The notes beneath the pieces are model-generated. The model was not told the DNA's origin. It did no database searches and saw nothing but the letters and a program-made list of their open reading frames with translations. Position numbers and translations under genes: made by a program. From Escherichia coli (lineage in GTDB: Bacteria > Pseudomonadota > Gammaproteobacteria > Enterobacterales > Enterobacteriaceae), in NCBI GenBank assembly GCA_003321845.1, contig GCA_003321845.1_3917.1: a DNA stretch of 34,186 nt; one strand, 5' to 3'. This document shows, in pieces, positions 11,829 through 30,323 of this stretch (position 1 is its first letter; every line of letters starts with the position of its first letter).

Positions 11829-12328
11829 TAATTAAACCTTACTTTTTGTTTAAGGACTGTTGAATGGTTACCAGATTCATCTACCACATTTACAATCATA
11901 TCATATACTTTACCTTTGACAAGTACTTTGTAATCATTTTGTGAAAAAATGTATTCAAGTCTGTTTGTTTCTTTATTAACTGTCATTGGAGATTGAAATG
12001 CAGTATCGAGGGTAATGAAAGCGGCTTCAATGCTATTGACATTGATACGTTTATTCTCGCAGTTATATAACTTTACACCCAAAAGGCATGAACTGTCAAA
12101 TGGAATTTTAACAATTTCACTACAATTTCCTGAAATAAACGATTTTCCACTCATTGGTGCATCAAGTAACCTGCAAATAGTGAAAACGTCAGAGATTCCA
12201 CCATCACTAACATAACCTGAAAGGCTGACCCTTGAGCCAGCCTCTACAGATAACTTGTCAGTGATGATAAGGACACCCCTATACGAATGCACTCGTGTAG
12301 CATTTGAAATAGAGATAACTTCAGCCAT
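11828..12328 (-). CDS. Hypothetical protein
   Basis: 166-aa ORF, start overlaps the portal stop (ATGA-type coupling). Confidence 0.5.
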   Translation of the reverse strand: MAEVISISNATRVHSYRGVLIITDKLSVEAGSRVSLSGYVSDGGISDVFTICRLLDAPMSGKSFISGNCSEIVKIPFDSSCLLGVKLYNCENKRINVNSIEAAFITLDTAFQSPMTVNKETNRLEYIFSQNDYKVLVKGKVYDMIVNVVDESGNHSTVLKQKVRFN

Positions 12329-13803
12329 TATTTATTTGCCTTATTTGCTGTGCTTGGGTCTTTCGCTGAAGGTGTCTTTGCAGTACCTTCTCCAGCGGTC
12401 TTATAACCATCTCCTGAGCGGCTTTGGCTATTTGGAGAAAGCTTTTCAGATACTGGCTGAGACTCATCAGCAGGAGGAAGACCAATATGCTCTCTAAGTT
12501 TGTTAGATAGCTCTTTGTCAACTTCCAAAGCACCTACTGCAACAGTCTTCTGAATATAAGAACCAATTGCTTCAAGGTCTGGAGTTTCGATATCATCATA
12601 TGTGATTTGTACATGTTCTTCATCATCCCACATATTAAGAGCATAAGTCTGTGCAACTAAATCACGGTTAATTACGTTCTTAATTTGCTTCAGCAGAATA
12701 TCTACTGACATTGCTAATAGGCTTGTCTTAGAATCTGCAAGAGAGAATGAACCATATTTTGACTGACCCATAGCAAGAACATCTGACATAAATGCCATCA
12801 TAATTTGCTTGGAATATCTGTCAATGATAGAACCTGTATCATATGCTTTAGCACCCTGTCTAGAAACTAATGAGAACTCAAAGATATCCTCTTTAGTATC
12901 TGGGTCGATATATCTAGGCCAGATTAAACCTGCTCTGTCATTAGCAATCATGTCATTAACAACAGTTTTGCAGTATTGTACGAAAGCTTTCTTTTCAGGT
13001 TCTGCATTTTCATCCAGATAGTCTGGTGGTAAACCAATCTTTGGCATACCTACTAAGTCTCTTGAAACACCAACAGCTTCATACTCTTCAATCTGTACTT
13101 TATATTTCCACGGTACATAAGCATTAAGTAATGGTGAACGACCTTCTGGATTTCCATATTCATCGTCATACTTAAATAGCATGAATTTAGCTCGTGGAAG
13201 TTTTCTTGTTAGAGGTCTCTCTCCAAGATTGATTGCTCCAGCAATATGTGAAACATTTCTTAGATTCTGTCTAACACCAGTAACTTTTCTAAAGTCTTCG
13301 TCAAAATACCACTTATCAAGTGTTGACTGGTTTCGGATTGGTAATTTAGCCCACCCAATTAGACCATCGTCAAATTTTGACTGGTACTTTCCTTTTTTAC
13401 CCTGACGTTTCTTATAAACCTTTTCGTTAACACAGAACCCATAAGTGCAGAATGACATTACAGAGTTAATAAAATCTGCCCAATCATGCTCCATGTCATC
13501 CATTAAAGAATTAAAGAAGTCTGCTCTTTCAAGCATTTTAGGGTCTTGCTCTTTTCCATTTGGAGGTACGAATCTCCAGTTGACTTTTCTGACAAACATC
13601 TTAATAATATTTACAGATGCTGCTACAGCAGGGTCACGCATCATTAATTGGAAAGTTTTAATACTTTCAGGGAACCTTAGTGCCTGACGAGGTTCTTCAT
13701 AGATTCTTCCATTCTTAACCTTCAGACCCAAAGAACCTACTTCACCCATTCTAAATGGTGGTAAGCTTTCTTGTGTTTCTGTAATATCTGCCATTCTTCT
13801 CAC
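12328..13803 (-). CDS. Portal protein
   Basis: 491-aa ORF immediately downstream of the large terminase gene and upstream of the protease/scaffold; canonical position and size. Confidence 0.7.
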   Translation of the reverse strand: MRRMADITETQESLPPFRMGEVGSLGLKVKNGRIYEEPRQALRFPESIKTFQLMMRDPAVAASVNIIKMFVRKVNWRFVPPNGKEQDPKMLERADFFNSLMDDMEHDWADFINSVMSFCTYGFCVNEKVYKKRQGKKGKYQSKFDDGLIGWAKLPIRNQSTLDKWYFDEDFRKVTGVRQNLRNVSHIAGAINLGERPLTRKLPRAKFMLFKYDDEYGNPEGRSPLLNAYVPWKYKVQIEEYEAVGVSRDLVGMPKIGLPPDYLDENAEPEKKAFVQYCKTVVNDMIANDRAGLIWPRYIDPDTKEDIFEFSLVSRQGAKAYDTGSIIDRYSKQIMMAFMSDVLAMGQSKYGSFSLADSKTSLLAMSVDILLKQIKNVINRDLVAQTYALNMWDDEEHVQITYDDIETPDLEAIGSYIQKTVAVGALEVDKELSNKLREHIGLPPADESQPVSEKLSPNSQSRSGDGYKTAGEGTAKTPSAKDPSTANKANK

Positions 13804-13810
13804 CTAGCTA

Positions 13811-15427
13811 TCAACGTCTAAGCCCCTCATATGGGTTTCCTCTCACTAAGTCTGTGTGAGCACCCATTGATGGTGGCTTGAATAATTTAACTTCGTTAAG
13901 ACTGTTGAAAGCATCACTGGTAGCATCCACTTGGTCATCTTTAGTTTTACCATCACCACAAAAACCTTCAAGTTCTTGGAAGTAAGCTTCATTCCAACTA
14001 CCTCTCAAGACTTTTACAAGTCCAGCTTCAGAAGCAGCAGAAAACCCCGCAAATCGGGTAACTTTATCTTTATTTGTTGGTTTAGCTCTTGCTCGATAAC
14101 CTTTCTCGGCAAGTTTCCTGATGAGGGATGTTGCGTAGGATTTACCAGCAGCGCCTGGGTCTTGAGGGATAAAAATACCAGTTCGCTTACCGTCACTTTC
14201 AGCAGTCAAATTAATTTGTGTTTCGACTCCAGAGGGTCTATCTCTAAATCTTACTACATCAATGATATAATAGCAACCGTCTTTTTTAGATTTACCCATC
14301 TTAACACCTGCTGTCCAGTCTGGATTAGGGTTAATCTCAGATGGTAAAGTTGCTGCTAAGTCCCATGCTCTGACATCGAATACATCTTCTGGGAGTGAAT
14401 CAACAATTTCACACCATTGTCTTTGCCAATAGTTTGAACCTTCTGCACGAGCCTTCCAGTTACCGAAACGAAGTCTTGCAACGTTTACAGGAGTGTTGTT
14501 TTCCAACTTACCGCGATACTTTGGTTCTAAGAAGTCAAGAATTGGGTTATCATCAATCGTACCAGAGATGAATGTATATGTTTGAGGAATCTCAAGAGGA
14601 AACATTTCAAGAATCTTGTCTCTCTCCCAATCAGAAACCATAACACCATCATTCATTACATACCAACGAATACGACCACACTTTTCAGGGTCTGGGTAAC
14701 CTTCTTCATCTAAGAATGGTTCTACCCAATCGTAAATGAAGTGGTCTCTGTCTGGGTTCATAGAAATCTTCATGTATGAATCACCTTCAGCCCCAGAACG
14801 TAGACGAGTCTGTAGGTATGAAATCTGTGAAGCAGAGAAGTGTGTACCTTCGTCAAAGTAAATAGCTGAGTATTCAATACCCTGATGACCTTCAGCGTGC
14901 TTTTCAAGTTCTAGATAGGTAAACTTGATAGTTGCCCCAGAAGGGAATGTGATAGTCATCTTCTGCTCGTGAGGAACCCCACCAAACTTACCAAATAGTT
15001 TCTTTGCAGCAGGCCATAAACCACCTTGTAACTGTGTTGTATTTCGACGGAAATATACAGCATTATAATTAGGGTCGTCAATAAACCTTAAAGAGTCCAT
15101 TAACAATGCAGCAGTCTTACCAGCACCCGCAGCACCACCATAGAGAACCAAGTCAGCATTAGTATTTAAAAAGACCTCTTGAGAACCCGGCTGAGGGGCT
15201 ACATAGTTCTTATCAGTCATCAATTTGAAGATAAGTCTAACTTGGTCTGGTGTGTATCTTAATAAAGTCAGAATTTGAGTTGGAAGGAATTTAGAGGGGT
15301 CTTTACCGAATGATTTGATAATTTCTTTTACTTCATCAGAAAGCCCCAACTCTCCAGCTAGGACTTTCCTAACATCTTCCACTCGCTTCTGCTTAACAGC
15401 ATTTAAGTCCATTAAGCACCTCCGCAA
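13811..15427 (-). CDS. terL: Terminase large subunit
   Basis: 538 aa; Walker A P-loop LYGGAAGAGKTAAL near the N-terminus, acidic nuclease-like C-terminal half, directly upstream of the portal gene. Confidence 0.8.
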   Translation of the reverse strand: MRRCLMDLNAVKQKRVEDVRKVLAGELGLSDEVKEIIKSFGKDPSKFLPTQILTLLRYTPDQVRLIFKLMTDKNYVAPQPGSQEVFLNTNADLVLYGGAAGAGKTAALLMDSLRFIDDPNYNAVYFRRNTTQLQGGLWPAAKKLFGKFGGVPHEQKMTITFPSGATIKFTYLELEKHAEGHQGIEYSAIYFDEGTHFSASQISYLQTRLRSGAEGDSYMKISMNPDRDHFIYDWVEPFLDEEGYPDPEKCGRIRWYVMNDGVMVSDWERDKILEMFPLEIPQTYTFISGTIDDNPILDFLEPKYRGKLENNTPVNVARLRFGNWKARAEGSNYWQRQWCEIVDSLPEDVFDVRAWDLAATLPSEINPNPDWTAGVKMGKSKKDGCYYIIDVVRFRDRPSGVETQINLTAESDGKRTGIFIPQDPGAAGKSYATSLIRKLAEKGYRARAKPTNKDKVTRFAGFSAASEAGLVKVLRGSWNEAYFQELEGFCGDGKTKDDQVDATSDAFNSLNEVKLFKPPSMGAHTDLVRGNPYEGLRR

Positions 15428-15670: not shown

Positions 15671-15694
15671 AAAAAAGACGGTACAGAGACCGTC
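15671..15694 (-). terminator. Intrinsic terminator at the 3' end of the tRNA array
   Basis: Plus strand aaaaaa-gacggt-acagag-accgtc: a 6-bp stem followed by a U6 run when read on the minus strand, between tRNA-Cys and the packaging genes. Confidence 0.5.
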
Positions 15695-15856: not shown

Positions 15857-15933
15857 TGGAGAATCCGAAGGGACTCGAACCCTTATAAACCTGTTTTGCA
15901 GACAGGCACATAGCCATTTCTGTCACGGATTCA
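15857..15933 (-). tRNA. tRNA-Cys (anticodon GCA)
   Basis: Hand-folded: encoded CCA, perfect 7-bp acceptor (gaatccg/cggattc), T-arm aaggg-actcgaa-ccctt, anticodon stem cctgt/acagg, loop reads CU-GCA-AA. Confidence 0.75.
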
Positions 15934-15936
15934 AAT

Positions 15937-16029
15937 TGGAGGAAGATACCAGACTTGAACTGGTACACCGATTTCTCAGCTACTGGCAGTTTAGCAAACT
16001 GCTCCCTTACCTTTTAGGGTTAATCTTCC
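15937..16029 (-). tRNA. tRNA-Ser (anticodon GCT), class II
   Basis: Encoded CCA, acceptor ggaagat/atcttcc, T-arm accag-acttgaa-ctggt, ~21-nt variable arm, anticodon stem gcagt/actgc, loop UU-GCU-AA. Confidence 0.75.
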
Positions 16030-16030
16030 A

Positions 16031-16765
16031 TTATTTCTGTAATGCGTTCTTCATTTCTGGTGTTGCAATAGTATCAATTACACCAGTTTTACAAGCATCA
16101 TCAAACCAGTCTGGTAAGATACCTGCTAAGAACCCATTGATATTCGTTTTAAGGTACTCTGCAATAAGAGCAGCTTCTTCTTCAATCATCTGCACAACTT
16201 CATCTGCATAAGCTGTAATCTTCGAAATACCTTCATTAATCTTACTAACAGCTTGGTTAGCTAAATCAGAAATAGTATCAAGACCTTTGTCAATAGCGTC
16301 TTGTAAGTCACTTAATACATCATTAACACCATCTAGAGCGCTGTTAATCGTATCCATAGCTTTTTGACCATACTCTGTAGCAACACCCATAATACCACTA
16401 AACGGTGTACAGCCAACTTGCTCTCCTGCTGCACCCATAACATTAGAATAACCTTTTGCTACCTGCATACGTGAGGAAAACTCATCAATGGACTTTTGAC
16501 CGTAATCCGTCAGCGTTTTGGTAGTTGATGTAGTGCTTGTCAGACTCGTTGTAAAGCTGTTAAGCAGAACTGTTGTAAGTCCAGCAGCAACAAGTTTATC
16601 TTTTATTGTAGGGTCTGTTACAGAGCTAATAGAGCTTACAAGTGATGTAGAGGCAGCTACGGTTCCACCGAGAACTGCTGCACCAGTAATAAGGGGATTA
16701 GAGAACCCTTTACCGGTTTTTAAGAGATTAAAAATCTCCTTACCTTGTTCTGTCATCTCTTTCAT
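16031..16765 (-). CDS. Hypothetical protein encoded inside the tRNA array (possible membrane or coiled-coil protein)
   Basis: ORF track gives 16031..16828 with a GTG start lying inside the tRNA-Phe anticodon arm. The first ATG (MKEMTEQ, at 16765) has AAGGTG 5 nt upstream and is the likelier start. Hydrophobic Gly/Ala segment followed by Ser/Thr-rich and acidic helical regions. Confidence 0.5.
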   Translation of the reverse strand: MKEMTEQGKEIFNLLKTGKGFSNPLITGAAVLGGTVAASTSLVSSISSVTDPTIKDKLVAAGLTTVLLNSFTTSLTSTTSTTKTLTDYGQKSIDEFSSRMQVAKGYSNVMGAAGEQVGCTPFSGIMGVATEYGQKAMDTINSALDGVNDVLSDLQDAIDKGLDTISDLANQAVSKINEGISKITAYADEVVQMIEEEAALIAEYLKTNINGFLAGILPDWFDDACKTGVIDTIATPEMKNALQK

Positions 16766-16781
16766 TAAGCACCTTTGAAAT

Positions 16782-16858
16782 TGGTAGTCCAGTGGGATTT
16801 GAACCCTCTTCTCATGTTTTTCAGACACGCGCTTTAACCATATAAGCTACTTGGACTA
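16782..16858 (-). tRNA. tRNA-Phe (anticodon GAA), slightly atypical
   Basis: Perfect acceptor tagtcca/tggacta, T-loop atttgaa with one T-stem mismatch, anticodon loop CU-GAA-AA. 3' CCA register is ambiguous. Confidence 0.55.
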
Positions 16859-16863
16859 TAAAT

Positions 16864-16939
16864 TGGGGTGACCTACGGGATTTGAACCCGTATAGACCAT
16901 GTTCACAGCATGGGTCATTACCATTTATGATAAGGCCAC
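16864..16939 (-). tRNA. tRNA-His (anticodon GTG)
   Basis: Encoded CCA, acceptor with one G-U pair, T-arm acggg-atttgaa-cccgt, anticodon stem ccatg/catgg, loop CU-GUG-AA. Confidence 0.7.
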
Positions 16940-16970
16940 ATTTAAGGACTCTCGTAAGAACCCTTAGAAG

Positions 16971-17046
16971 TGGCAGCGGCATAAGGATTTGAACCTTAAT
17001 AAGACAGCTTCAGAGACTGCTGCATTGCCAGTTATGCTATACCGCT
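16971..17046 (-). tRNA. tRNA-Gln (anticodon CTG)
   Basis: Encoded CCA, T-arm taagg-atttgaa-cctta, anticodon stem with two G-U pairs, loop CU-CUG-AA. Confidence 0.6.
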
Positions 17047-17051
17047 AAATT

Positions 17052-17130
17052 TGGTACTCCATATCGGATTCGAACCGATACATAACACAGATTTTAAGTC
17101 TGGCCTCTCTGCCAATTGGAGTAATGGAGC
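17052..17130 (-). tRNA. tRNA with anticodon TAA (formally Leu) but short variable arm
   Basis: Encoded CCA, discriminator A, T-arm atcgg-attcgaa-ccgat, anticodon loop CU-UAA-AA. Variable region only ~7 nt, i.e. class-I geometry, unusual for a Leu anticodon. Confidence 0.5.
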
Positions 17131-17131
17131 A

Positions 17132-17206
17132 TGGTACTCACTAAAGGACTTGAACCTTTTTCTTCATCTTGTAAGGGTGGTGTTTTACCATATAAACTAA
17201 GCGAGT
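17132..17206 (-). tRNA. tRNA-Val (anticodon TAC), tentative
   Basis: Encoded CCA, acceptor actcact/agcgagt with one G-U, T-arm aaagg-acttgaa-ccttt. Anticodon stem is imperfect; loop reads CU-UAC-AA. Confidence 0.5.
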
Positions 17207-17302
17207 GTGAAAGAGGTCTGAAGTTGTGCCGCTAACTCAACTCCGTGGAATTTGTTACGGTCTTCAGTTGACTCAAAGCGGTCTTTCACTTGACCTCTAA
17301 AT

Positions 17303-17378
17303 TGGTGCTCCCACAAGGATTCGAACCCTGATAAGTTGCTTACAAGGCAACCGTAATAGCCAATTATACGATAGGAGC
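17303..17378 (-). tRNA. tRNA-Thr (anticodon TGT)
   Basis: Encoded CCA, T-arm caagg-attcgaa-ccctg, perfect anticodon stem gttgc/gcaac, loop CU-UGU-AA. Confidence 0.75.
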
Positions 17379-17385
17379 ATTAATT

Positions 17386-17460
17386 TGGAGCATCCAGAGG
17401 GAATCGAACCCTCAACCTCAGTTTGGAAGACTGTAATTTTCCCGTTTAAACTATGGATGC
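17386..17460 (-). tRNA. tRNA-Gly (anticodon TCC)
   Basis: Encoded CCA, perfect acceptor gcatcca/tggatgc, T-arm gaggg-aatcgaa-ccctc, loop CU-UCC-AA. Confidence 0.7.
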
Positions 17461-17466
17461 ACTAAT

Positions 17467-17542
17467 TGGTGGAGTCACTGGGAATTGAACCCAGTTCCCA
17501 AGTTTGCAAAACTCGAATTTTAACCATATAAACTATGACCCC
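17467..17542 (-). tRNA. tRNA-Ala (anticodon TGC)
   Basis: Encoded CCA, acceptor ggagtca/tgacccc including a G-U pair, T-arm ctggg-aattgaa-cccag, loop UU-UGC-AA. Confidence 0.7.
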
Positions 17543-17548
17543 ATTGTT

Positions 17549-17624
17549 TGGTACAGGTGGAGGGAATTGAACCCATCGTCTTACTGATTAAGAGTCAGCC
17601 GCATAACCATTTTGCTACACCTGC
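17549..17624 (-). tRNA. tRNA-Lys (anticodon CTT)
   Basis: Encoded CCA, acceptor acaggtg/cacctgc, T-loop aattgaa with a 3-bp effective T-stem (same backbone as the Lys-TTT gene), loop CU-CUU-AA. Confidence 0.6.
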
Positions 17625-17631
17625 ATTAATT

Positions 17632-17709
17632 TGGTAGGAGACAAGGGATTCGAACCCTCAAACACCAACTTCTAAGGATGGTAGGTTTACCAATTACCGT
17701 CAATCTCCC
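17632..17709 (-). tRNA. tRNA with anticodon TAG (formally Leu) but short variable arm
   Basis: Encoded CCA, discriminator A, T-arm aaggg-attcgaa-ccctc, anticodon loop CU-UAG-AA with one A-A mismatch in the stem; class-I length (~78 nt). Confidence 0.5.
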
Positions 17710-17961
17710 ATTAAATCTTTTTAGAGAACTTCTAAGAACCTAAGCAACAAGGTTCCACAACAAGCTGTAATAACCTTAGAAGCCCTCTAAAAAGACCTAA
17801 TTTGGTCTTTGCATAGTCTTGTTTAATCCGGTGACTAGAACCTTTGGAGAGCTTGATATTATCTCTTCTCCGTGACACCTACTAGGTGCTTTATCAGTGT
17901 ACGACAATACACGAGGGATAAACCGAAAATGCGAGCAAGCATGGACGGTGTAAATCTTATT

Positions 17962-18052
17962 AGGCGGTAAGTAAAGGAGTCGAACCCTCACCGTATCTCT
18001 ACAGTGGCAACAGTTTTCAAGACTGTTTGGCTGCCATTAGCCGCTACCTACC
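17962..18052 (-). tRNA. tRNA-Ser (anticodon TGA), class II
   Basis: Perfect 6-bp anticodon stem aacagt/actgtt with loop CU-UGA-AA, ~20-nt variable arm, acceptor ggtaagt/acctacc, discriminator G. T-stem has two G-U pairs; CCA not fully encoded. Confidence 0.55.
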
Positions 18053-18065
18053 CCTAATAAGATTT

Positions 18066-18148
18066 TGGCATGGGACGGAGGAGTTGAACCCCTTTGAAAC
18101 GGTTTTGGAGGCCGTTGCTCATGCCTTAGAGTCTTAACATCGTCCCAT
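18066..18148 (-). tRNA. tRNA, probably Trp (anticodon CCA), atypical length
   Basis: Encoded CCA, perfect acceptor atgggac/gtcccat, T-loop agttgaa, anticodon hairpin acggc/accgt with loop CU-CCA-AA. About 7 extra nt in the D-arm region. Confidence 0.45.
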
Positions 18149-18291
18149 ACTGTAATTCGAAGCTTACCGTATTTTCACAACACTGTAAAGCCCCTTCTCA
18201 GATTATTTACATGTTCTGGAAAACATGAGATACAGACCACCTCCTTACACGGAGACCCGATAAGGTCGTCTAAGCAATCTGCTAACTAAAT

Positions 18292-18373
18292 TGGTCGAGG
18301 CGGCAGGACTCGAACCCGCATACTCCACTTACTCGGTTAACGGCGGTTTAGAAGACCGCTGAGATACGCCCCG
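18292..18373 (-). tRNA. tRNA-like element (anticodon-like loop TCT, Arg?) with degenerate D-arm
   Basis: Encoded CCA, acceptor cgaggcg/cgccccg, T-arm gcagg-actcgaa-cccgc, perfect hairpin gcggt-ttagaag-accgc giving CU-UCU-AA. Only ~7 nt where the D-arm should be and ~23 nt between the T-arm and that hairpin. Confidence 0.4.
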
Positions 18374-18667
18374 TAATTATCTTTAAAGACTCTCTGAGAA
18401 AGCCCTTAAAGATGCCCACATTATTAATCATACCGTGGGCTAGTACGCCAAATTCTTTGATGAGGGGTTGGAAGACCTCACTGGTGTTTAGCCTATCAAG
18501 CTACTGCCAGAAAAACATTGTCGTTTGCATTTATTTTAAATTTACAAAATAGACGCTACGCAACGAAAACTATTCAGAATATGTACAACAAATTTCCCCA
18601 CATTGTGTTACGTCTAACGCTCATGTCTTGGTGTTTGAATTATACATATGCTGAATCATTTTCAGTT

Positions 18668-18696
18668 ACTATAAAGTAGTCACATCTCAATGTCAA
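18668..18696 (-). promoter_or_regulatory. Candidate sigma70-type promoter internal to the tRNA array
   Basis: Minus strand reads TTGACA, 17 nt, TATAGT (plus-strand tgtcaa at ~18691 and actata at ~18668); it would drive the lower half of the array. Confidence 0.45.
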
Positions 18697-18711
18697 CAAC
18701 TTTATTGAAAT

Positions 18712-18785
18712 TGGTTGTAGGTGAGGGTATCGAACCCTCTTCTAACGGTTATCAGCCGTTTGCATTACCATTTATGCTAACCCAC
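18712..18785 (-). tRNA. tRNA-Ile (anticodon GAT)
   Basis: Encoded CCA, T-arm gaggg-tatcgaa-ccctc, perfect anticodon stem aacgg/ccgtt, loop CU-GAU-AA. Confidence 0.75.
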
Positions 18786-18788
18786 AAT

Positions 18789-18865
18789 TGGAGGTTCAGA
18801 TGGGAATCGAACCCACATCCATAGGGCTTATGAAACCCCTGCATTACCTTATCTGCGACTGAACC
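18789..18865 (-). tRNA. tRNA-Met (anticodon CAT; could be elongator Met or Ile2)
   Basis: Encoded CCA, perfect acceptor ggttcag/ctgaacc, T-arm atggg-aatcgaa-cccac, loop UU-CAU-AA. Confidence 0.6.
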
Positions 18866-18943
18866 ATAATAAGTACCCTAGTTAGAGAAACTATTGAGTG
18901 GGTGTTTCCAGCCGCGCAGGTGTTTCTCAGTTAAGGGTGAATT

Positions 18944-19019
18944 TGGTAGAAGTGGAGGGATTCGAACCCATCGCCTGTCAGATTAAAAGTCTGCCGCATC
19001 ACCATTCTGCTACACTTCC
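18944..19019 (-). tRNA. tRNA-Lys (anticodon TTT)
   Basis: Encoded CCA, acceptor agaagtg/cacttcc, T-loop attcgaa, anticodon stem caga/tctg, loop CU-UUU-AA. Confidence 0.65.
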
Positions 19020-19024
19020 ATTAA

Positions 19025-19167
19025 ATTATCTTTGTAGATAAGCTACCCAGACTTGCTTAAGGTCTGTAGCGATGTGCCTTTTTGGGTTTAAATCTAGAAT
19101 TTACCCTTTCACCCTTTGTGGTCGCATACTCACAGGTAAGCTTAATAACTTATCTACAAAGATAATT
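19025..19167. repeat. Perfect 18-bp inverted repeat (attatctttgtagataag / cttatctacaaagataat) enclosing ~107 nt
   Basis: Read directly from the sequence; arms at ~19025-19042 and ~19150-19167 within a tRNA-free stretch of the array. Predicts a long stem-closed structured RNA or a DNA cruciform. Confidence 0.6.
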
Positions 19168-19216
19168 ACCAGACCGTTGTTTATCATCTTAAGTGCTACC
19201 ATTACACCAACTCGAC

Positions 19217-19245
19217 ATCTGCCGAGTGAAGGAATCGAACCTTCG
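19217..19245 (-). other. Orphan tRNA T-arm-like hairpin (tRNA fragment or tRNA-like module)
   Basis: gaagg-aatcgaa-ccttc is a perfect T-arm mimic with an acceptor-like 7-mer beside it, but no matching 5' acceptor strand, D-arm or anticodon arm could be found. Confidence 0.3.
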
Positions 19246-19477
19246 CCTTTTCTTTACCGGAGAAATAGATTGTTTAAAGTTTGCTGTAAACGGTCTTCTG
19301 TAAATTTGTTGAGCCAGACCAAGTTTTAAATTTTTTCAAAATTAAATTGGCTTGAAAATTTCATACGTACTTGCTGAATTTGGTCTTCTGCTCCTTTAAA
19401 GAATACTCGTAAGAACTCTTTAAGGGAGGGGCTAAATAGCCCTCTCAAAACATCATTTTGAAATACTTATTATAATT

Positions 19478-19555
19478 TGGCGGTTACGAAGGGATTTGAA
19501 CCCTCATCATCTCCCGTGACAGGGGAGTATTTTAACCAGTTAAACTACATAACCT
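19478..19555 (-). tRNA. tRNA-Asp (anticodon GTC)
   Basis: Encoded CCA, T-arm aaggg-atttgaa-ccctc, perfect anticodon stem ctccc/gggag, loop CU-GUC-AC. Confidence 0.75.
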
Positions 19556-19560
19556 TTATT

Positions 19561-19648
19561 TGGTGTGCCGTGTAGGAGTCGAACCTACCGAGTCTCAATG
19601 ACAAGGGATTTACAGTCCCCACCGCTACCATCTACGGGATAACGACAC
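19561..19648 (-). tRNA. tRNA-Tyr (anticodon GTA), class II
   Basis: Encoded CCA, T-arm gtagg-agtcgaa-cctac, ~15-nt variable arm, anticodon stem aggga/tcccc, loop CU-GUA-AA. Confidence 0.7.
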
Positions 19649-19717
19649 ATTTAATTTCTATTCAGGCTAAGGACTTGCACCTTACAAATCGGTGAGCAAT
19701 CGCTTCTCTCCTAAATT

Positions 19718-19794
19718 TGGCGGTTAGTCAGGGATTCGAACCCTGTGCCATTCGCTTAACAGGCGACCGCACATACCTTATGTGCTTCCTAACC
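19718..19794 (-). tRNA. tRNA-Asn (anticodon GTT)
   Basis: Encoded CCA, T-arm caggg-attcgaa-ccctg, anticodon stem tcgc/gcga, loop CU-GUU-AA. Confidence 0.7.
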
Positions 19795-19871
19795 TTAATA
19801 CATTGCCAGACCGTGTTTTTTCTTTTATCCGCAAAAAGTATTTTGTTGCTGAATACGGTCTTCTGCAAAAT

Positions 19872-19948
19872 TGGAGGCGGGTGCAGGAGTCGAACCTACC
19901 GATACCATGCTAATGAGACATGTGAGACGCCCTTTCTCTATACCCGCA
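19872..19948 (-). tRNA. tRNA-Met (anticodon CAT), possible initiator
   Basis: Encoded CCA, T-arm gcagg-agtcgaa-cctac, D-stem gaga/tctc, anticodon loop with CAT. The 1:72 acceptor pair is mismatched, as in bacterial initiator tRNA. Confidence 0.55.
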
Positions 19949-20039
19949 ATTCTTAATGACCAGACCAAATCTCTTCTTTGTCCGATTTACCTTCAGATGA
20001 ATAAGATTAAGTTTGCTGCAATTGGTCTTCTGTCAAAAC

Positions 20040-20117
20040 TGGCGTTCCAGAAGGGATTTGAACCCTCAAATATCCACTTTGAAAGAGTGGCGACTTTACC
20101 GTTTTGTCTACTGGAAC
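20040..20117 (-). tRNA. tRNA-Glu (anticodon TTC)
   Basis: Encoded CCA, perfect acceptor gttccag/ctggaac, T-arm aaggg-atttgaa-ccctc, perfect anticodon stem ccact/agtgg, loop CU-UUC-AA. Confidence 0.75.
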
Positions 20118-20124
20118 ATTAATT

Positions 20125-20201
20125 TGGTCTCTGTTGGAGGACTTGAACCTCCGGCCTTACCGCCCCAAACGGAACGCTCTACCAAGCTGAGCTAAACAGA
20201 G
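20125..20201 (-). tRNA. tRNA-Pro (anticodon TGG)
   Basis: Encoded CCA, perfect acceptor ctctgtt/aacagag, perfect T-arm ggagg-acttgaa-cctcc, anticodon loop UU-UGG-GG. Confidence 0.65.
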
Positions 20202-29168: not shown

Positions 29169-29393
29169 ATGATTAAGACACCTGTACCAATTTTTGGATT
29201 TCCTTCTATTGAAGAGTTCAAAGTTTATCTTGACAAAAACTTCTACAATGAGCAGCCTGTTACTTTGCTGAAGAGTGACTTATCAGAGCTTCTTGATATG
29301 GTTATCAAGGCAACTTCTGAGAAGGAACCTGAGCAGAAAGCTGAGAAGAAGACTAGTAAGAAATCCGATAAGAAGACTGAAAAGTCTGAGTAG
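29169..29393 (+). CDS. Small protein with Lys/Glu-rich tail
   Basis: 74-aa ORF with GGAG upstream; C-terminus EKEPEQKAEKKTSKKSDKKTEKSE. Confidence 0.5.
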   Translation: MIKTPVPIFGFPSIEEFKVYLDKNFYNEQPVTLLKSDLSELLDMVIKATSEKEPEQKAEKKTSKKSDKKTEKSE

Positions 29394-29446
29394 TAGCTTG
29401 AGGGGTTATTTGATAGCCCCTTTGTAGAAACTTAGAAGGTAGCGAA

Positions 29447-29869
29447 ATGAAAGAGCTTATTGGTAAAAGATTGACAGTTTACTGCTCTAAAACAAAGAAA
29501 CCACTCACTTCTGTGAAAGTCTTTGATGTTGACACCACTGGTGTAGAGTACCCAATCCAATGCACAATAGTTACTCCATTCAATGTAGATGATATGGATT
29601 TTAAAGAGTGTGAAGTGATATCTTTTAATGCTGATGGGTATTGGAGTGGTAAGTTAAACAAGCAATCAAAAGATTTTGATATGCAAATCTTCATCAATGA
29701 AGGCTATATCGGTGTAAAAGATATCATCGTAGAAGCCTATGAAGAAGGTATAATAGATGTTGTGCATGATGTTGAAGAAGCTTTAAAGCTCATTATGCCA
29801 CATTTAGAATCTGGAAAGCTGACTTTAGAGATGCTTAATAGGGTTATTCGGAGAGCTTATGAAAATTAA
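29447..29869 (+). CDS. Hypothetical protein
   Basis: 140-aa ORF with a purine-rich ribosome-binding site. Confidence 0.55.
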   Translation: MKELIGKRLTVYCSKTKKPLTSVKVFDVDTTGVEYPIQCTIVTPFNVDDMDFKECEVISFNADGYWSGKLNKQSKDFDMQIFINEGYIGVKDIIVEAYEEGIIDVVHDVEEALKLIMPHLESGKLTLEMLNRVIRRAYEN

Positions 29870-30323
29870 AGAAGTAGTCCAAAAAGCAATGCTTGACAAT
29901 TCAACTAAACATGAAATGTACATAGAGATTTGTGATAAGTTGAATTGTTCAAGACATGCTGCTAAGGTTCTTGTACATTGTTTTATCTGGGAATGCTCAG
30001 AGGCTTATATGCAACATGTAGCTTTTGATAGTTCTCACTTACTAGGTGATGTAGAAGCTGGTGAGAAGCTAAAAGAACCTGAGATGAAAACAGTCCCTAA
30101 AGTTGGTAATGTATACCCTCTTAAAGATTTTAAGACTGGAAAGATTGTTGCAAAAGGTGTAGTAGAATCTGTTTATCACGATGGTAAATACTTACTTAAA
30201 ATATTTGAGTATGATAGTCAATACACACACTTATGTGGGATTACATTCTTAGTAACAGAAGAAGACCTCATTAAGAACAACGGCAACAAGTTTGCAGTAC
30301 CAGCTTACCAAGTTTTACAATAA
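29859..30323 (+). CDS. Hypothetical protein
   Basis: 154-aa ORF overlapping the upstream gene. Confidence 0.55.
   Translation: MKIKEVVQKAMLDNSTKHEMYIEICDKLNCSRHAAKVLVHCFIWECSEAYMQHVAFDSSHLLGDVEAGEKLKEPEMKTVPKVGNVYPLKDFKTGKIVAKGVVESVYHDGKYLLKIFEYDSQYTHLCGITFLVTEEDLIKNNGNKFAVPAYQVLQ

Follow-up and report, generated by a model that had tools for sequence, protein, structure and literature searches.

A DUF7217 protein gene inside the tRNA array of a Felixounavirus phage: start site, expression and a possible association with the virion

An open reading frame lying within a phage tRNA array raises the question of whether it is a gene at all, where it begins, and whether its product has anything to do with the surrounding tRNAs. 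The frame considered here lies in a 34,186-nucleotide stretch of DNA (the window, contig GCA_003321845.1_3917.1) from a Felixounavirus, a Felix O1-like myovirus, and the region shares 95-98% DNA identity with many Felixounavirus genomes. ARAGORN placed 22 tRNA genes on the minus strand, from 15857 to 20201. The mechanical ORF list contains a frame at 16031..16828 (minus strand, 265 aa) opened by a GTG, which an earlier sequence-only reading had described as the only ORF in the array. This is true of the window when frames of at least 100 aa are counted, but not of the genus, where a DUF7338 ORF (185 aa) lies inside the arrays of Felix O1, pinkbiff and Bas63, and HNH endonuclease genes lie inside that of Felix O1. 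Relative to Felix O1 and Bas63, the window has lost about 0.9 kb with the DUF7338 ORF, and 3 tRNAs carried by both phages are absent from it. The features discussed below are the following.

15677..15694, minus strand: terminator-like hairpin with a T6 run, between tRNA-Cys and the small ORF/large terminase gene (candidate)
15857..15932, minus strand: tRNA-Cys(GCA), the last tRNA of the array, downstream of the gene (ARAGORN; Rfam tRNA model)
15937..16029, minus strand: tRNA-Ser(GCU) of the long-variable-arm type, 5′ end 1 nt past the TAA (ARAGORN; Rfam, 46.2 bits)
16031..16765, minus strand: DUF7217 protein gene, 244 codons plus TAA; product of 25.6 kDa, pI 4.4
16770..16775, minus strand: Shine-Dalgarno AAGGTG, 4 nt upstream of the ATG (read from the sequence)
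16782..16857, minus strand: tRNA-Phe(GAA) with encoded CCA, 3′ end 16 nt upstream of the ATG (ARAGORN; Rfam RF00005, 45 bits)
16826..16828, minus strand: GTG opening the longest ORF, within the tRNA-Phe anticodon stem; not the true start
18668..18696, minus strand: sigma-70-type promoter-like site TTGACA-17-TATAGT, 11/12 match, the closest strong one upstream on the same strand (candidate)

A conserved gene and its start codon

The product matches Pfam DUF7217 (PF23854) with 303 bits (E 2e-90; gathering cut-off 29 bits), and residues 8-243 align to positions 2-238 of the 238-position model, which is thus covered in full. It likewise matches PHROG 2114 (E 4e-112). Nearly all homologues are 244 aa long, with identities of 61-99%, and dN/dS against relatives is 0.08-0.26. 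The gene is therefore under purifying selection, and the family match together with the dN/dS values excludes the chance open frame that the sequence-only reading had still allowed for. In an alignment of 23 diverse members, the family is marked by an N-terminal F/Y-x-LL-x-x-G-x-(A/G)-F-x-NPL motif, a central Y-G...E...R and the paired cysteines C119/C225, all of which are present here. A second, word-indexed homologue search with alignment brought only 1 sequence beyond those of the exhaustive search.

The gene is the orthologue of ORF49/gp49 of Felix O1 (NP_944879), of gene 159 of Bas63 (bas63_0159) and of VpaE1_047. These share its length of 244 aa, the same ATG, 95-99% protein identity and the same order of tRNA-Phe, gene, tRNA-Ser/Cys, small ORF and terminase; nothing substantive differs. 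The gene is thus already catalogued and the finding is an ordinary, known one. Within Ounavirinae it is universal and strongly constrained, unlike its dispensable DUF7338 neighbour. Our literature search found no paper that mentions DUF7217, and the text on PhageMaP, a Bas63 knockout screen, makes no mention of gene 159. DUF7217 as such is strongly conserved, has a confidently predicted helical fold and is common to Felix O1-like and Vi1-like myoviruses, which are used in phage typing, biocontrol and therapy.

As the sequence-only reading had pointed out, the GTG of the longest ORF falls within the anticodon arm of tRNA-Phe. In fact, 16828-16826 correspond to tRNA positions 30-32, on the 5′ strand of the anticodon stem and 4 nt before the GAA anticodon (16822-16820). 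The ATG at 16765-16763, exactly 21 codons past the GTG, had been proposed instead, and it is almost certainly the start of a real gene. The homologues are 244 aa long, the Pfam span covers residues 8-243, and RefSeq annotates ORF49 of Felix O1 at 29271..30005 with the equivalent ATG. Moreover, (A/T)AGGTG or AAGGA occupies the position of the ribosome-binding site in Felixounavirus, Mooglevirus, Kolesnikvirus and the metagenomic relatives, and the region around the initiation site lacks structure (z +1.18). L012 (metagenomic, 69% identical) and Erwinia phage Panisse each have an in-frame stop 3 codons before the conserved ATG.

A 265-aa protein translated from the GTG at 16828, on an mRNA overlapping tRNA-Phe, is scarcely credible. 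The 27 codons upstream of the ATG are indeed open in Felixounavirus and Mooglevirus, and some GenBank records annotate the longer form. Yet the frame is open because the tRNA itself is conserved, which accounts for it without any translation, and the GTG sits in a tRNA stem and has no ribosome-binding site. The upstream stops of L012 and Panisse also speak against the longer form, as does the presence of another tRNA upstream in L010 (metagenomic) and Panisse, and the family profile begins at the ATG. Choosing the longest ORF is the source of this artefactual start. The mis-annotation that the sequence-only reading suspected does exist in GenBank, where pinkbiff_38 is given as 798 nt overlapping tRNA-Phe, and the pEC-M719 record starts at yet another codon upstream. 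Some Felixounavirus records therefore need correction at this locus.

Packing between tRNAs and expression

The gene is bounded on both sides by same-strand tRNAs, 16 nt upstream and 1 nt downstream, and this tRNA-punctuated layout is conserved in relatives. In Felixounavirus, Mooglevirus, Kolesnikvirus, L010 and L012, the ATG follows 16-19 nt after the 3′ end of a tRNA, while 0-3 nt separate the stop codon from tRNA-Ser(GCU) in Felix O1, Mooglevirus, pEC-M719 and L012. No promoter- or terminator-like site was found on the coding strand between the gene and its flanking tRNAs. With no room for signals of its own, the gene is most likely transcribed within the tRNA operon; this co-transcription, read from the layout, is in our judgement very probable. 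The promoter-like site at 18668..18696 has hexamers and spacing identical to those of promoter “P45” of Felix O1 (PMC3185647), and the hairpin at 15677..15694 has a local fold of -20.1 kcal/mol (z -3.2). The ORF49 transcript of Felix O1 was detected by RT-PCR (PMC3185647). It is listed there in the “5 min” class together with the capsid gene (PMC3185647), and the class discriminates poorly because it holds the capsid gene as well. A tRNA operon seemingly driven by sigma-70 and a terminator-like hairpin standing between the gene and terminase speak against a late structural role.

Operons that combine tRNAs and protein genes are familiar in bacteria and phages, for example thrU-tyrU-glyT-thrT-tufB of E. 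coli and the ORFs interspersed in the tRNA regions of T4 and T5. As in the tufB operon, a protein gene lacking its own promoter lies directly downstream of same-strand tRNAs, so that its mRNA comes from a tRNA-containing precursor; unlike there, a tRNA also follows here, 1 nt after the stop codon. In this respect the layout recalls the “tRNA punctuation” model of mRNA release in mitochondria, where tRNAs likewise bound the coding sequences on both sides with almost no untranslated sequence. In L012 the last base of the TAG stop codon is the first base of the tRNA, which resembles the mitochondrial stop codons left incomplete by tRNA excision. The resemblance is one of layout only, however, as bacterial translation is coupled to transcription and processing is for that reason not needed for expression. 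Translation could take place either from the tRNA-operon precursor or from a fragment freed by tRNA processing. In the latter case, RNase E or another 3′-end nuclease would cut the A/U-rich leader between tRNA and ATG, AAUUUCAAA, and RNase P would cut at the 5′ end of tRNA-Ser. The mRNA may thus be released by tRNA processing, in which case one relative at least would be left with an incomplete stop codon. The packing is a tidy case of a mitochondria-like tRNA-CDS-tRNA arrangement in a bacterial virus, and it is unsurprising in a compact phage genome.

The sequence-only reading took the co-transcription as a hint of a role linked to the array. Conservation inside the tRNA arrays of related phages, which it proposed to check, was indeed found: the gene is embedded in Felixounavirus, in Mooglevirus and in two metagenomic relatives, and its start lies 16-19 nt past a tRNA in all Ounavirinae examined. 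Both observations would suit a protein acting on or with the phage tRNAs, by processing, modification, protection from anticodon nucleases or charging, and such a role would explain the embedding. Even so, we regard it as very improbable. Family members in Ackermannviridae and in an Acinetobacter phage have no tRNA neighbours, and for that of L009, a metagenomic phage, the surrounding 18 kb are free of tRNAs. Erwinia Kolesnikvirus has the gene outside the array, behind the last tRNA and heading the terminase/portal block. No nucleic-acid-binding or enzymatic family was matched in Pfam, NCBIfam or PHROGs, and the acidic protein (pI 4.4) contains only one Arg. Its codon use, scored against the phage tRNA set, is 0.684 against a median gene of 0.683, so that no dependence of codon use on the phage tRNAs was found. 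The proposed link to the array was therefore not borne out, and the function is very probably unrelated to tRNAs, which are neighbours through genome packing and not functional partners. The ancestral place of the gene would be directly ahead of the terminase-portal-head block; Felix O1-type phages have two tRNAs (Ser, Cys) downstream of it.

A predicted soluble helical bundle

AlphaFold2 run with a diverse alignment folds the whole chain into helices with pLDDT 96.8 and pTM 0.87, and the product is confidently predicted to be a soluble, acidic, all-alpha helical bundle. An earlier model built from 15 close homologues (pLDDT 63) gave no PDB match below E 0.3 in Foldseek, and in BFVD, a viral structure library, all matches were members of the same family, with no functional analogue. 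Across 61 family representatives, both cysteines are present in 48 and neither in 11; of the 2 with a single cysteine, one is a truncated fragment and the other is aligned only in part. From this pattern of being kept or lost together, C119 and C225 would form a disulfide.

Two features of the chain that the sequence-only reading described are present: a Gly/Ala-rich segment (residues 25-43, LITGAAVLGGTVAASTSLV) and a Ser/Thr-rich stretch at about residues 70-86. The hydrophobicity ascribed to the former is marginal, however, and the segment is polar in distant members. Its 19-residue Kyte-Doolittle mean of 1.62, the maximum of the protein, is at the usual threshold of 1.6. Several GenBank records label the product “putative membrane protein”, and one could picture a holin-like, lysis-related or superinfection-exclusion factor anchored by this segment, the more so as the profile is weakly similar to tape-measure proteins, which have membrane-active segments. 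We consider an integral membrane protein improbable nonetheless. The segment is Gly/Ser/Thr-rich and lies inside what is modelled as one compact soluble bundle with pLDDT above 90, and no conserved transmembrane helix was found by hydropathy, alignment or the model. Overall, the acidic protein has a hydropathy near 0, and no signal-peptide-like N-terminus was seen. It is probably not a membrane protein.

Several other identities were considered and rejected. A tail tape-measure protein is suggested by PHROG matches of E 1e-5 to 0.03, but a profile comparison with the 742-aa tape-measure protein of the phage itself gives a probability of 0.1%. The match to GTP-binding PHROG 289 covers profile positions 262-499 of 500, and no P-loop GxxxxGK[ST] is present. 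The “GTP-binding domain” label is carried in ViI and allotria by a different gene, which lies upstream, and the 475-aa entry of Salmonella phage 38 has DUF7217 in only about half its length. Thus neither this label nor that of membrane protein holds up. Inh of T4, a 25.6-kDa head protein and inhibitor of the prohead protease, was considered because it is comparable in size and in its place on T4-like genome maps, and hhalign gave a probability of 0.2%. The idea of a small terminase subunit was prompted by the Felix O1 paper, which found the large subunit only (PMC3185647); it is rejected because Ackermannviridae carry DUF7217 beside both terminase subunits as separate genes (PMC3296691). In NCBIfam the only matches were sub-threshold coiled-coil ones to ZorA. 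The neighbours of the homologues in Acinetobacter phage 3098, ViI and L009 have no family in common with the Ounavirinae neighbours.

Conflicting evidence on the virion

Taken as a whole, the locus is best explained as an orthologue of ORF49 that is expressed from the tRNA operon, serves a purpose unrelated to tRNAs, folds as a soluble bundle and is a low-copy virion-associated protein; we hold this combination with slightly better than even confidence. Its last part, a low-copy protein lying outside the ordered lattices of capsid, tail and baseplate, is tentative and on its own falls somewhat short of an even chance. We propose it because orthologues in Ackermannviridae were detected in virions by mass spectrometry. 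ORF129 of LIMEstone1 (“unknown structural protein”) is 28% identical to the window protein (E 8e-29), and together with Vi01_142c of ViI (“phage associated protein”) it belongs to the same family, at 26-29% identity over the full length. Both orthologues are about 242 aa long and share the cysteine pair and the N-terminal NPL motif with the window protein. Unlike in the window, their gene stands between the major capsid and gp3 tail-completion genes with no tRNA near, and a T4-type late promoter is annotated upstream. ORF129 (25.03 kDa) is listed as a “confirmed structural protein”, with 18% of its sequence covered by 2 peptides (PMC3296691), and all unknown structural proteins of LIMEstone1 are said to have structural counterparts in ViI (PMC3296691).

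The Felix O1-type protein, in contrast to these orthologues, which were detected in purified virions, has not been convincingly detected. In a stringent shotgun virion proteome of Felix O1, gp49 is absent (PMC3185647), and the DUF7217 protein is absent from the gene product table of Sf14 that was checked by mass spectrometry (PMC11821841). A search of PDB sequences with the family profile returned coiled-coil noise only (best E 0.01: coronavirus HR1, haemagglutinin HA2, XaxB and designed bundles) and no DUF7217 chain, while the same set contains the capsid and sheath of Bas63 and Sf14, found at E below 1e-230. DUF7217 is not among the deposited virion chains of Bas63 and Sf14, and was not found as an ordered structural protein. 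For Bas63 this absence is not absolute, because the map has one helix-rich density without an assigned protein.

Alternatively, the protein could be a soluble intracellular accessory factor made along with the phage tRNAs, perhaps in host takeover, anti-defence or assembly help, the detections in Ackermannviridae being carry-over of an abundant protein. We regard this as possible but doubtful. It would suit the sigma-70-like promoter upstream in the array and the hairpin separating the gene from terminase, the “5 min” transcript class of ORF49, and the absence from the Felix O1 proteome, the Sf14 table and the deposited models. Moreover, the homologue of Acinetobacter phage 3098 lies among many small unannotated ORFs, the gene occupies different positions in different phage groups, as accessory genes commonly do, and for Bas63 an anti-defence function has been reported for the 471-aa protein encoded next to it. 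The virion list of LIMEstone1 does hold clear non-structural contaminants, such as rIIB, ligase and PhoH (PMC3296691). Nevertheless, the orthologue is listed by two independent virion proteomes (LIMEstone1 and ViI), and its coverage and peptide number exceed those of the acknowledged contaminants (under 5%, 1 peptide). The joint retention or loss of the two cysteines is also easier to understand in a protein that acts outside the reducing cytoplasm, and the universality and constraint of the gene in Ounavirinae differ from those of a dispensable neighbour such as DUF7338. The biological value of the locus is modest, but the cysteine pair and the conflicting virion data pose a concrete question.

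A more specific form of the preferred, virion-associated reading can be drawn from the cryo-EM of Bas63, in which a helix-rich three-fold density without an assigned protein rings the tip of the tail puncture apparatus, whose protein is gp21 (PMC12609058); its authors mention a similar density at the tail tip of Sf14 (PMC12609058). That this density is DUF7217 is improbable. If it were, the protein would form a three-copy, disulfide-stapled helical cap, the first part to meet the host envelope, and three copies per virion would explain both the patchy detection by mass spectrometry and the absence from deposited models. Such a cap would further agree with the conservation of the cysteine pair, with the Gly/Ala-rich segment and with the presence of the gene in two myovirus groups that are not otherwise related.

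Finally, the Felix O1 paper equates a 51-kDa virion band with gp49, yet its own table gives a 48.9-kDa ORF63 as “Major structural protein” (PMC3185647). The statement on gp49 conflicts with the predicted mass of 25.6 kDa and is probably a slip.

Reality and start site of the DUF7217 gene

The 2-kb region round the gene is 95–98% identical to hundreds of genomes of Felix O1-like myoviruses (Felixounavirus, subfamily Ounavirinae), whose hosts are E. coli, Salmonella and Shigella. In the direction of transcription, the minus strand carries the gene of a 471-aa protein, an array of 22 tRNAs (20201 down to 15857), a 66-aa ORF and then the large terminase, portal and head genes. The DUF7217 gene lies within this array, with the following features at its ends:

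16782..16857, minus strand, tRNA-Phe(GAA) (ARAGORN; Rfam, 45 bits)
16031..16828, minus strand, longest ORF with GTG start (ORF list)
16828-16826, minus strand, GTG of this ORF, within the anticodon stem of tRNA-Phe (5' strand) and 4 nt ahead of the anticodon
16775-16770, minus strand, AAGGTG before the ATG, read from the sequence as the ribosome-binding site
16765, minus strand, ATG of the DUF7217 gene, 21 codons downstream of the GTG
15937..16029, minus strand, tRNA-Ser(GCU) (ARAGORN; Rfam, 46 bits)

The sequence-only reading had described the tRNA-Phe, the GTG in its anticodon arm and the ATG with its AAGGTG, all of which are present, and had proposed that translation starts at ATG 16765 rather than at the GTG. 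Comparison with relatives agrees with this. Database homologues (61–99% identity) are almost all 244 aa long, and the 244-aa product matches Pfam DUF7217 over the full length (303 bits, E 2e-90) as well as PHROG 2114 (E 4e-112). That the frame upstream of the ATG is open in Felixounavirus and Mooglevirus is due solely to the conserved tRNA that it crosses. L012, a metagenomic Ounavirinae contig with 69% protein identity, and Erwinia phage Panisse (Kolesnikvirus) both have an in-frame stop 3 codons before the conserved ATG. The tRNA preceding the gene in Panisse and in another metagenomic contig, L010, is a tRNA-Ser, not a tRNA-Phe. Moreover, the ribosome-binding site is conserved among relatives and the initiation region is unstructured. 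RefSeq Felix O1 ORF49 (29271..30005) already uses the same ATG and the original Felix O1 entry gives both starts, while other GenBank records let the gene run into tRNA-Phe, from the GTG in pinkbiff and from another upstream start in pEC-M719. A chance open frame is refuted by conservation, namely the match to DUF7217 and pairwise dN/dS values of 0.08–0.26 against relatives. The DUF7217 gene is real and ATG 16765 is its start; since gene, family and correct start are public (RefSeq Felix O1 ORF49, Pfam DUF7217), this is already known.

The longest-ORF artefact is also seen in the large terminase ORF (13811..15427, minus strand), which is 5 codons too long (TTG 15427 against the relatives' ATG 15412), and in the portal ORF (12328..13803, minus strand), which is 3 codons too long (GTG 13803 against ATG 13794).

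Transcription between the flanking tRNAs

tRNA-Phe, whose CCA is encoded, ends 16 nt before the ATG, and tRNA-Ser(GCU) begins 1 nt after the TAA stop. The first gap is 16–19 nt in every Ounavirinae genome examined and the second 0–3 nt in Felix O1, Mooglevirus, pEC-M719 and L012. No promoter-like or terminator-like site was found on the coding strand between the gene and its flanking tRNAs; two such sites lie farther away:

18696..18668, minus strand, sigma-70-type promoter-like site, the nearest strong one upstream, matching Felix O1 "P45" in hexamers and spacing
15694..15677, minus strand, terminator-like hairpin with a T6 run after tRNA-Cys (sequence and fold)

P45 is a listed promoter of Felix O1, for which an RT-PCR product of ORF49 was also obtained (PMC3185647). 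The tight gaps, the empty junctions, these two sites and the RT-PCR product together suggest that the gene would be transcribed inside the tRNA operon, and that its message would be cut back during tRNA processing to little more than the coding sequence. In L012 (8733..8736), the G of the TAG stop is at the same time the first base of tRNA-Ser(GCU), so that after an RNase P cut the mRNA would end in ...UA and its stop codon would be incomplete, as happens in mitochondrial mRNAs. With a tRNA on either side, the gene resembles mitochondrial tRNA punctuation, though only in layout. Operons in which tRNAs precede a protein gene are known, for example that of E. coli tufB.

Family distribution, fold and virion association

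A role linked to the array had been hinted at from this position, but we found no evidence for it. When 1.8 billion representative proteins were searched exhaustively with a profile, only 56 clusters were recovered, nearly all of stand-alone proteins of 220–290 aa. Translated searches of phage genomes place the family in Ounavirinae and Ackermannviridae (Kuttervirus, Limestonevirus, and Klebsiella and Shigella Vi1-like phages; 26–29% identity over the full length), with a further member in an Acinetobacter myovirus. The Ackermannviridae gene is placed between the major capsid and gp3 tail-completion genes and has no tRNA near it. Its homologue in a distant metagenomic phage (L009) comes after tail-protein genes, and no tRNA is closer than 18 kb. 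The Kolesnikvirus gene stands behind the final tRNA, as the first of the terminase/portal block, which suggests that the tRNA-Ser and tRNA-Cys of Felix O1-type phages simply sit downstream of an older gene. Codon use is also average: the phage's own tRNAs can read a fraction of 0.684 of the codons, and the median over the genes of that strand is 0.683. With tRNA-free loci and ordinary codons, a tRNA-related role is very unlikely.

The protein (25.6 kDa, pI 4.4) has one Arg and no His. Its AlphaFold2 model, from a diverse 23-sequence alignment, is all-alpha with about ten helices, three of them long (pLDDT 96.8, pTM 0.87). The hydrophobic Gly/Ala segment reported earlier is indeed Gly/Ala-rich, yet its hydropathy only just reaches the threshold (1.62), distant members have polar residues there, and in the model it forms one helix of the bundle. 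The GenBank label "putative membrane protein" is thus poorly founded, and we consider a membrane role very improbable. The PHROG 289 label "GTP-binding domain" was rejected: the protein lacks a P-loop, and in Vi1-like phages the label goes with a distinct adjacent gene. C119 and C225 are both present in 48 representatives and both absent from 11, the only two single-cysteine sequences being a truncated fragment and a partly aligned one. Since they are kept or lost together, they probably form a disulfide, a hint that the protein acts outside the reducing cytoplasm.

Evidence for a place in the virion is conflicting. LIMEstone1 ORF129, an orthologue (E 8e-29), is a "confirmed structural protein" (25.03 kDa, 2 peptides, 18% coverage), and all LIMEstone1 structural proteins of unknown function are said to have structural counterparts in ViI (PMC3296691). 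Against this, gp49 is not listed in the stringent Felix O1 shotgun proteome (PMC3185647), nor is the orthologue in the Sf14 particle-protein table (PMC11821841). Sequence search found no DUF7217 chain in the PDB, despite the Bas63 and Sf14 virion models there, whose capsid and sheath were matched at E below 1e-230 (near-identical capsid and sheath chains there include 9ncf and 9mt4). On balance, virion association is tentative, somewhat short of an even chance, and an accessory role inside the cell is only a little less likely.

In the text and abstract of the Felix O1 paper, the major virion band of 51 kDa, a possible sheath protein, is called "Gp49", whereas its Supplementary Table 1 gives gene 49 as 244 aa (25.6 kDa) and ORF63 (450 aa, 48.9 kDa) as "Major structural protein" (PMC3185647). 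The name is therefore probably a numbering slip, and could mislead annotation.

At least 23 virion gene products were counted in Bas63 and 22 modelled; cryo-EM left one unassigned, helix-rich, three-fold density round the tip of the puncture apparatus, and its authors pointed to a comparable ring, although smeared, at the tail tip of Sf14 (PMC12609058). A 25.6-kDa, all-helical protein with a probable disulfide could perhaps account for it, and three copies per virion would explain the patchy detection. This assignment is nonetheless very unlikely, because in the authors' view the gene of the missing protein should lie in the baseplate module (PMC12609058). The Sf15 orthologue gp102 (L014 2501..3235) carries the GenBank note "predicted receptor-binding protein", for which sequence and fold searches found no basis.

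Other features of the tRNA array

The gene had been called the only ORF of the array. This holds for the window at a length of at least 100 aa but not for relatives, whose arrays additionally hold a 185-aa DUF7338 ORF, and in Felix O1 also HNH endonuclease genes. Compared with Felix O1, pinkbiff and Bas63, about 0.9 kb is missing at 17130/17132 (minus strand), comprising tRNA-Leu(CAA), tRNA-Arg(ACG), the DUF7338 ORF ("holin" or "membrane protein" in some records) and tRNA-Gln(UUG), so that tRNA-Val directly adjoins an intact tRNA-Leu(UAA). The DUF7338 gene is therefore dispensable. IME338, which aligns to the window without a gap, probably shares this reduced layout.

At 18295..18373 (minus strand), the Rfam tRNA model scores 31.7 bits, just over the gathering threshold, with no ARAGORN call. 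This may be a degenerate copy of tRNA-Arg(UCU), since relatives annotate that tRNA between tRNA-Ile and tRNA-Ser(UGA). Rfam at the gathering threshold misses two ARAGORN calls, tRNA-Tyr (19561..19648) and one tRNA-Met (19872..19948). In the Bas63 record MZ501086, the 93-nt tRNA after the DUF7217 gene (bas63_0160; L020 10707..10799) is labelled tRNA-Arg (AGA). Its equivalent in the window has a long variable arm and is called tRNA-Ser(GCU) by ARAGORN, and the records of Mordin, Sf15 and pinkbiff also give tRNA-Ser; the Bas63 label is likely a mis-annotation.

The 471-aa protein directly upstream of the array (20367..21782, minus strand) has Pfam domains DUF2828 and DUF7788 and is named "RNA-binding protein" in RefSeq Felix O1. 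Its Bas63 homologue gp130 is reported to have a Ro60-like structure and to counter the ppl defence system, and the authors of that work suggested that some of the array "tRNAs" might be Y-RNA-like partners (PMC11482910).
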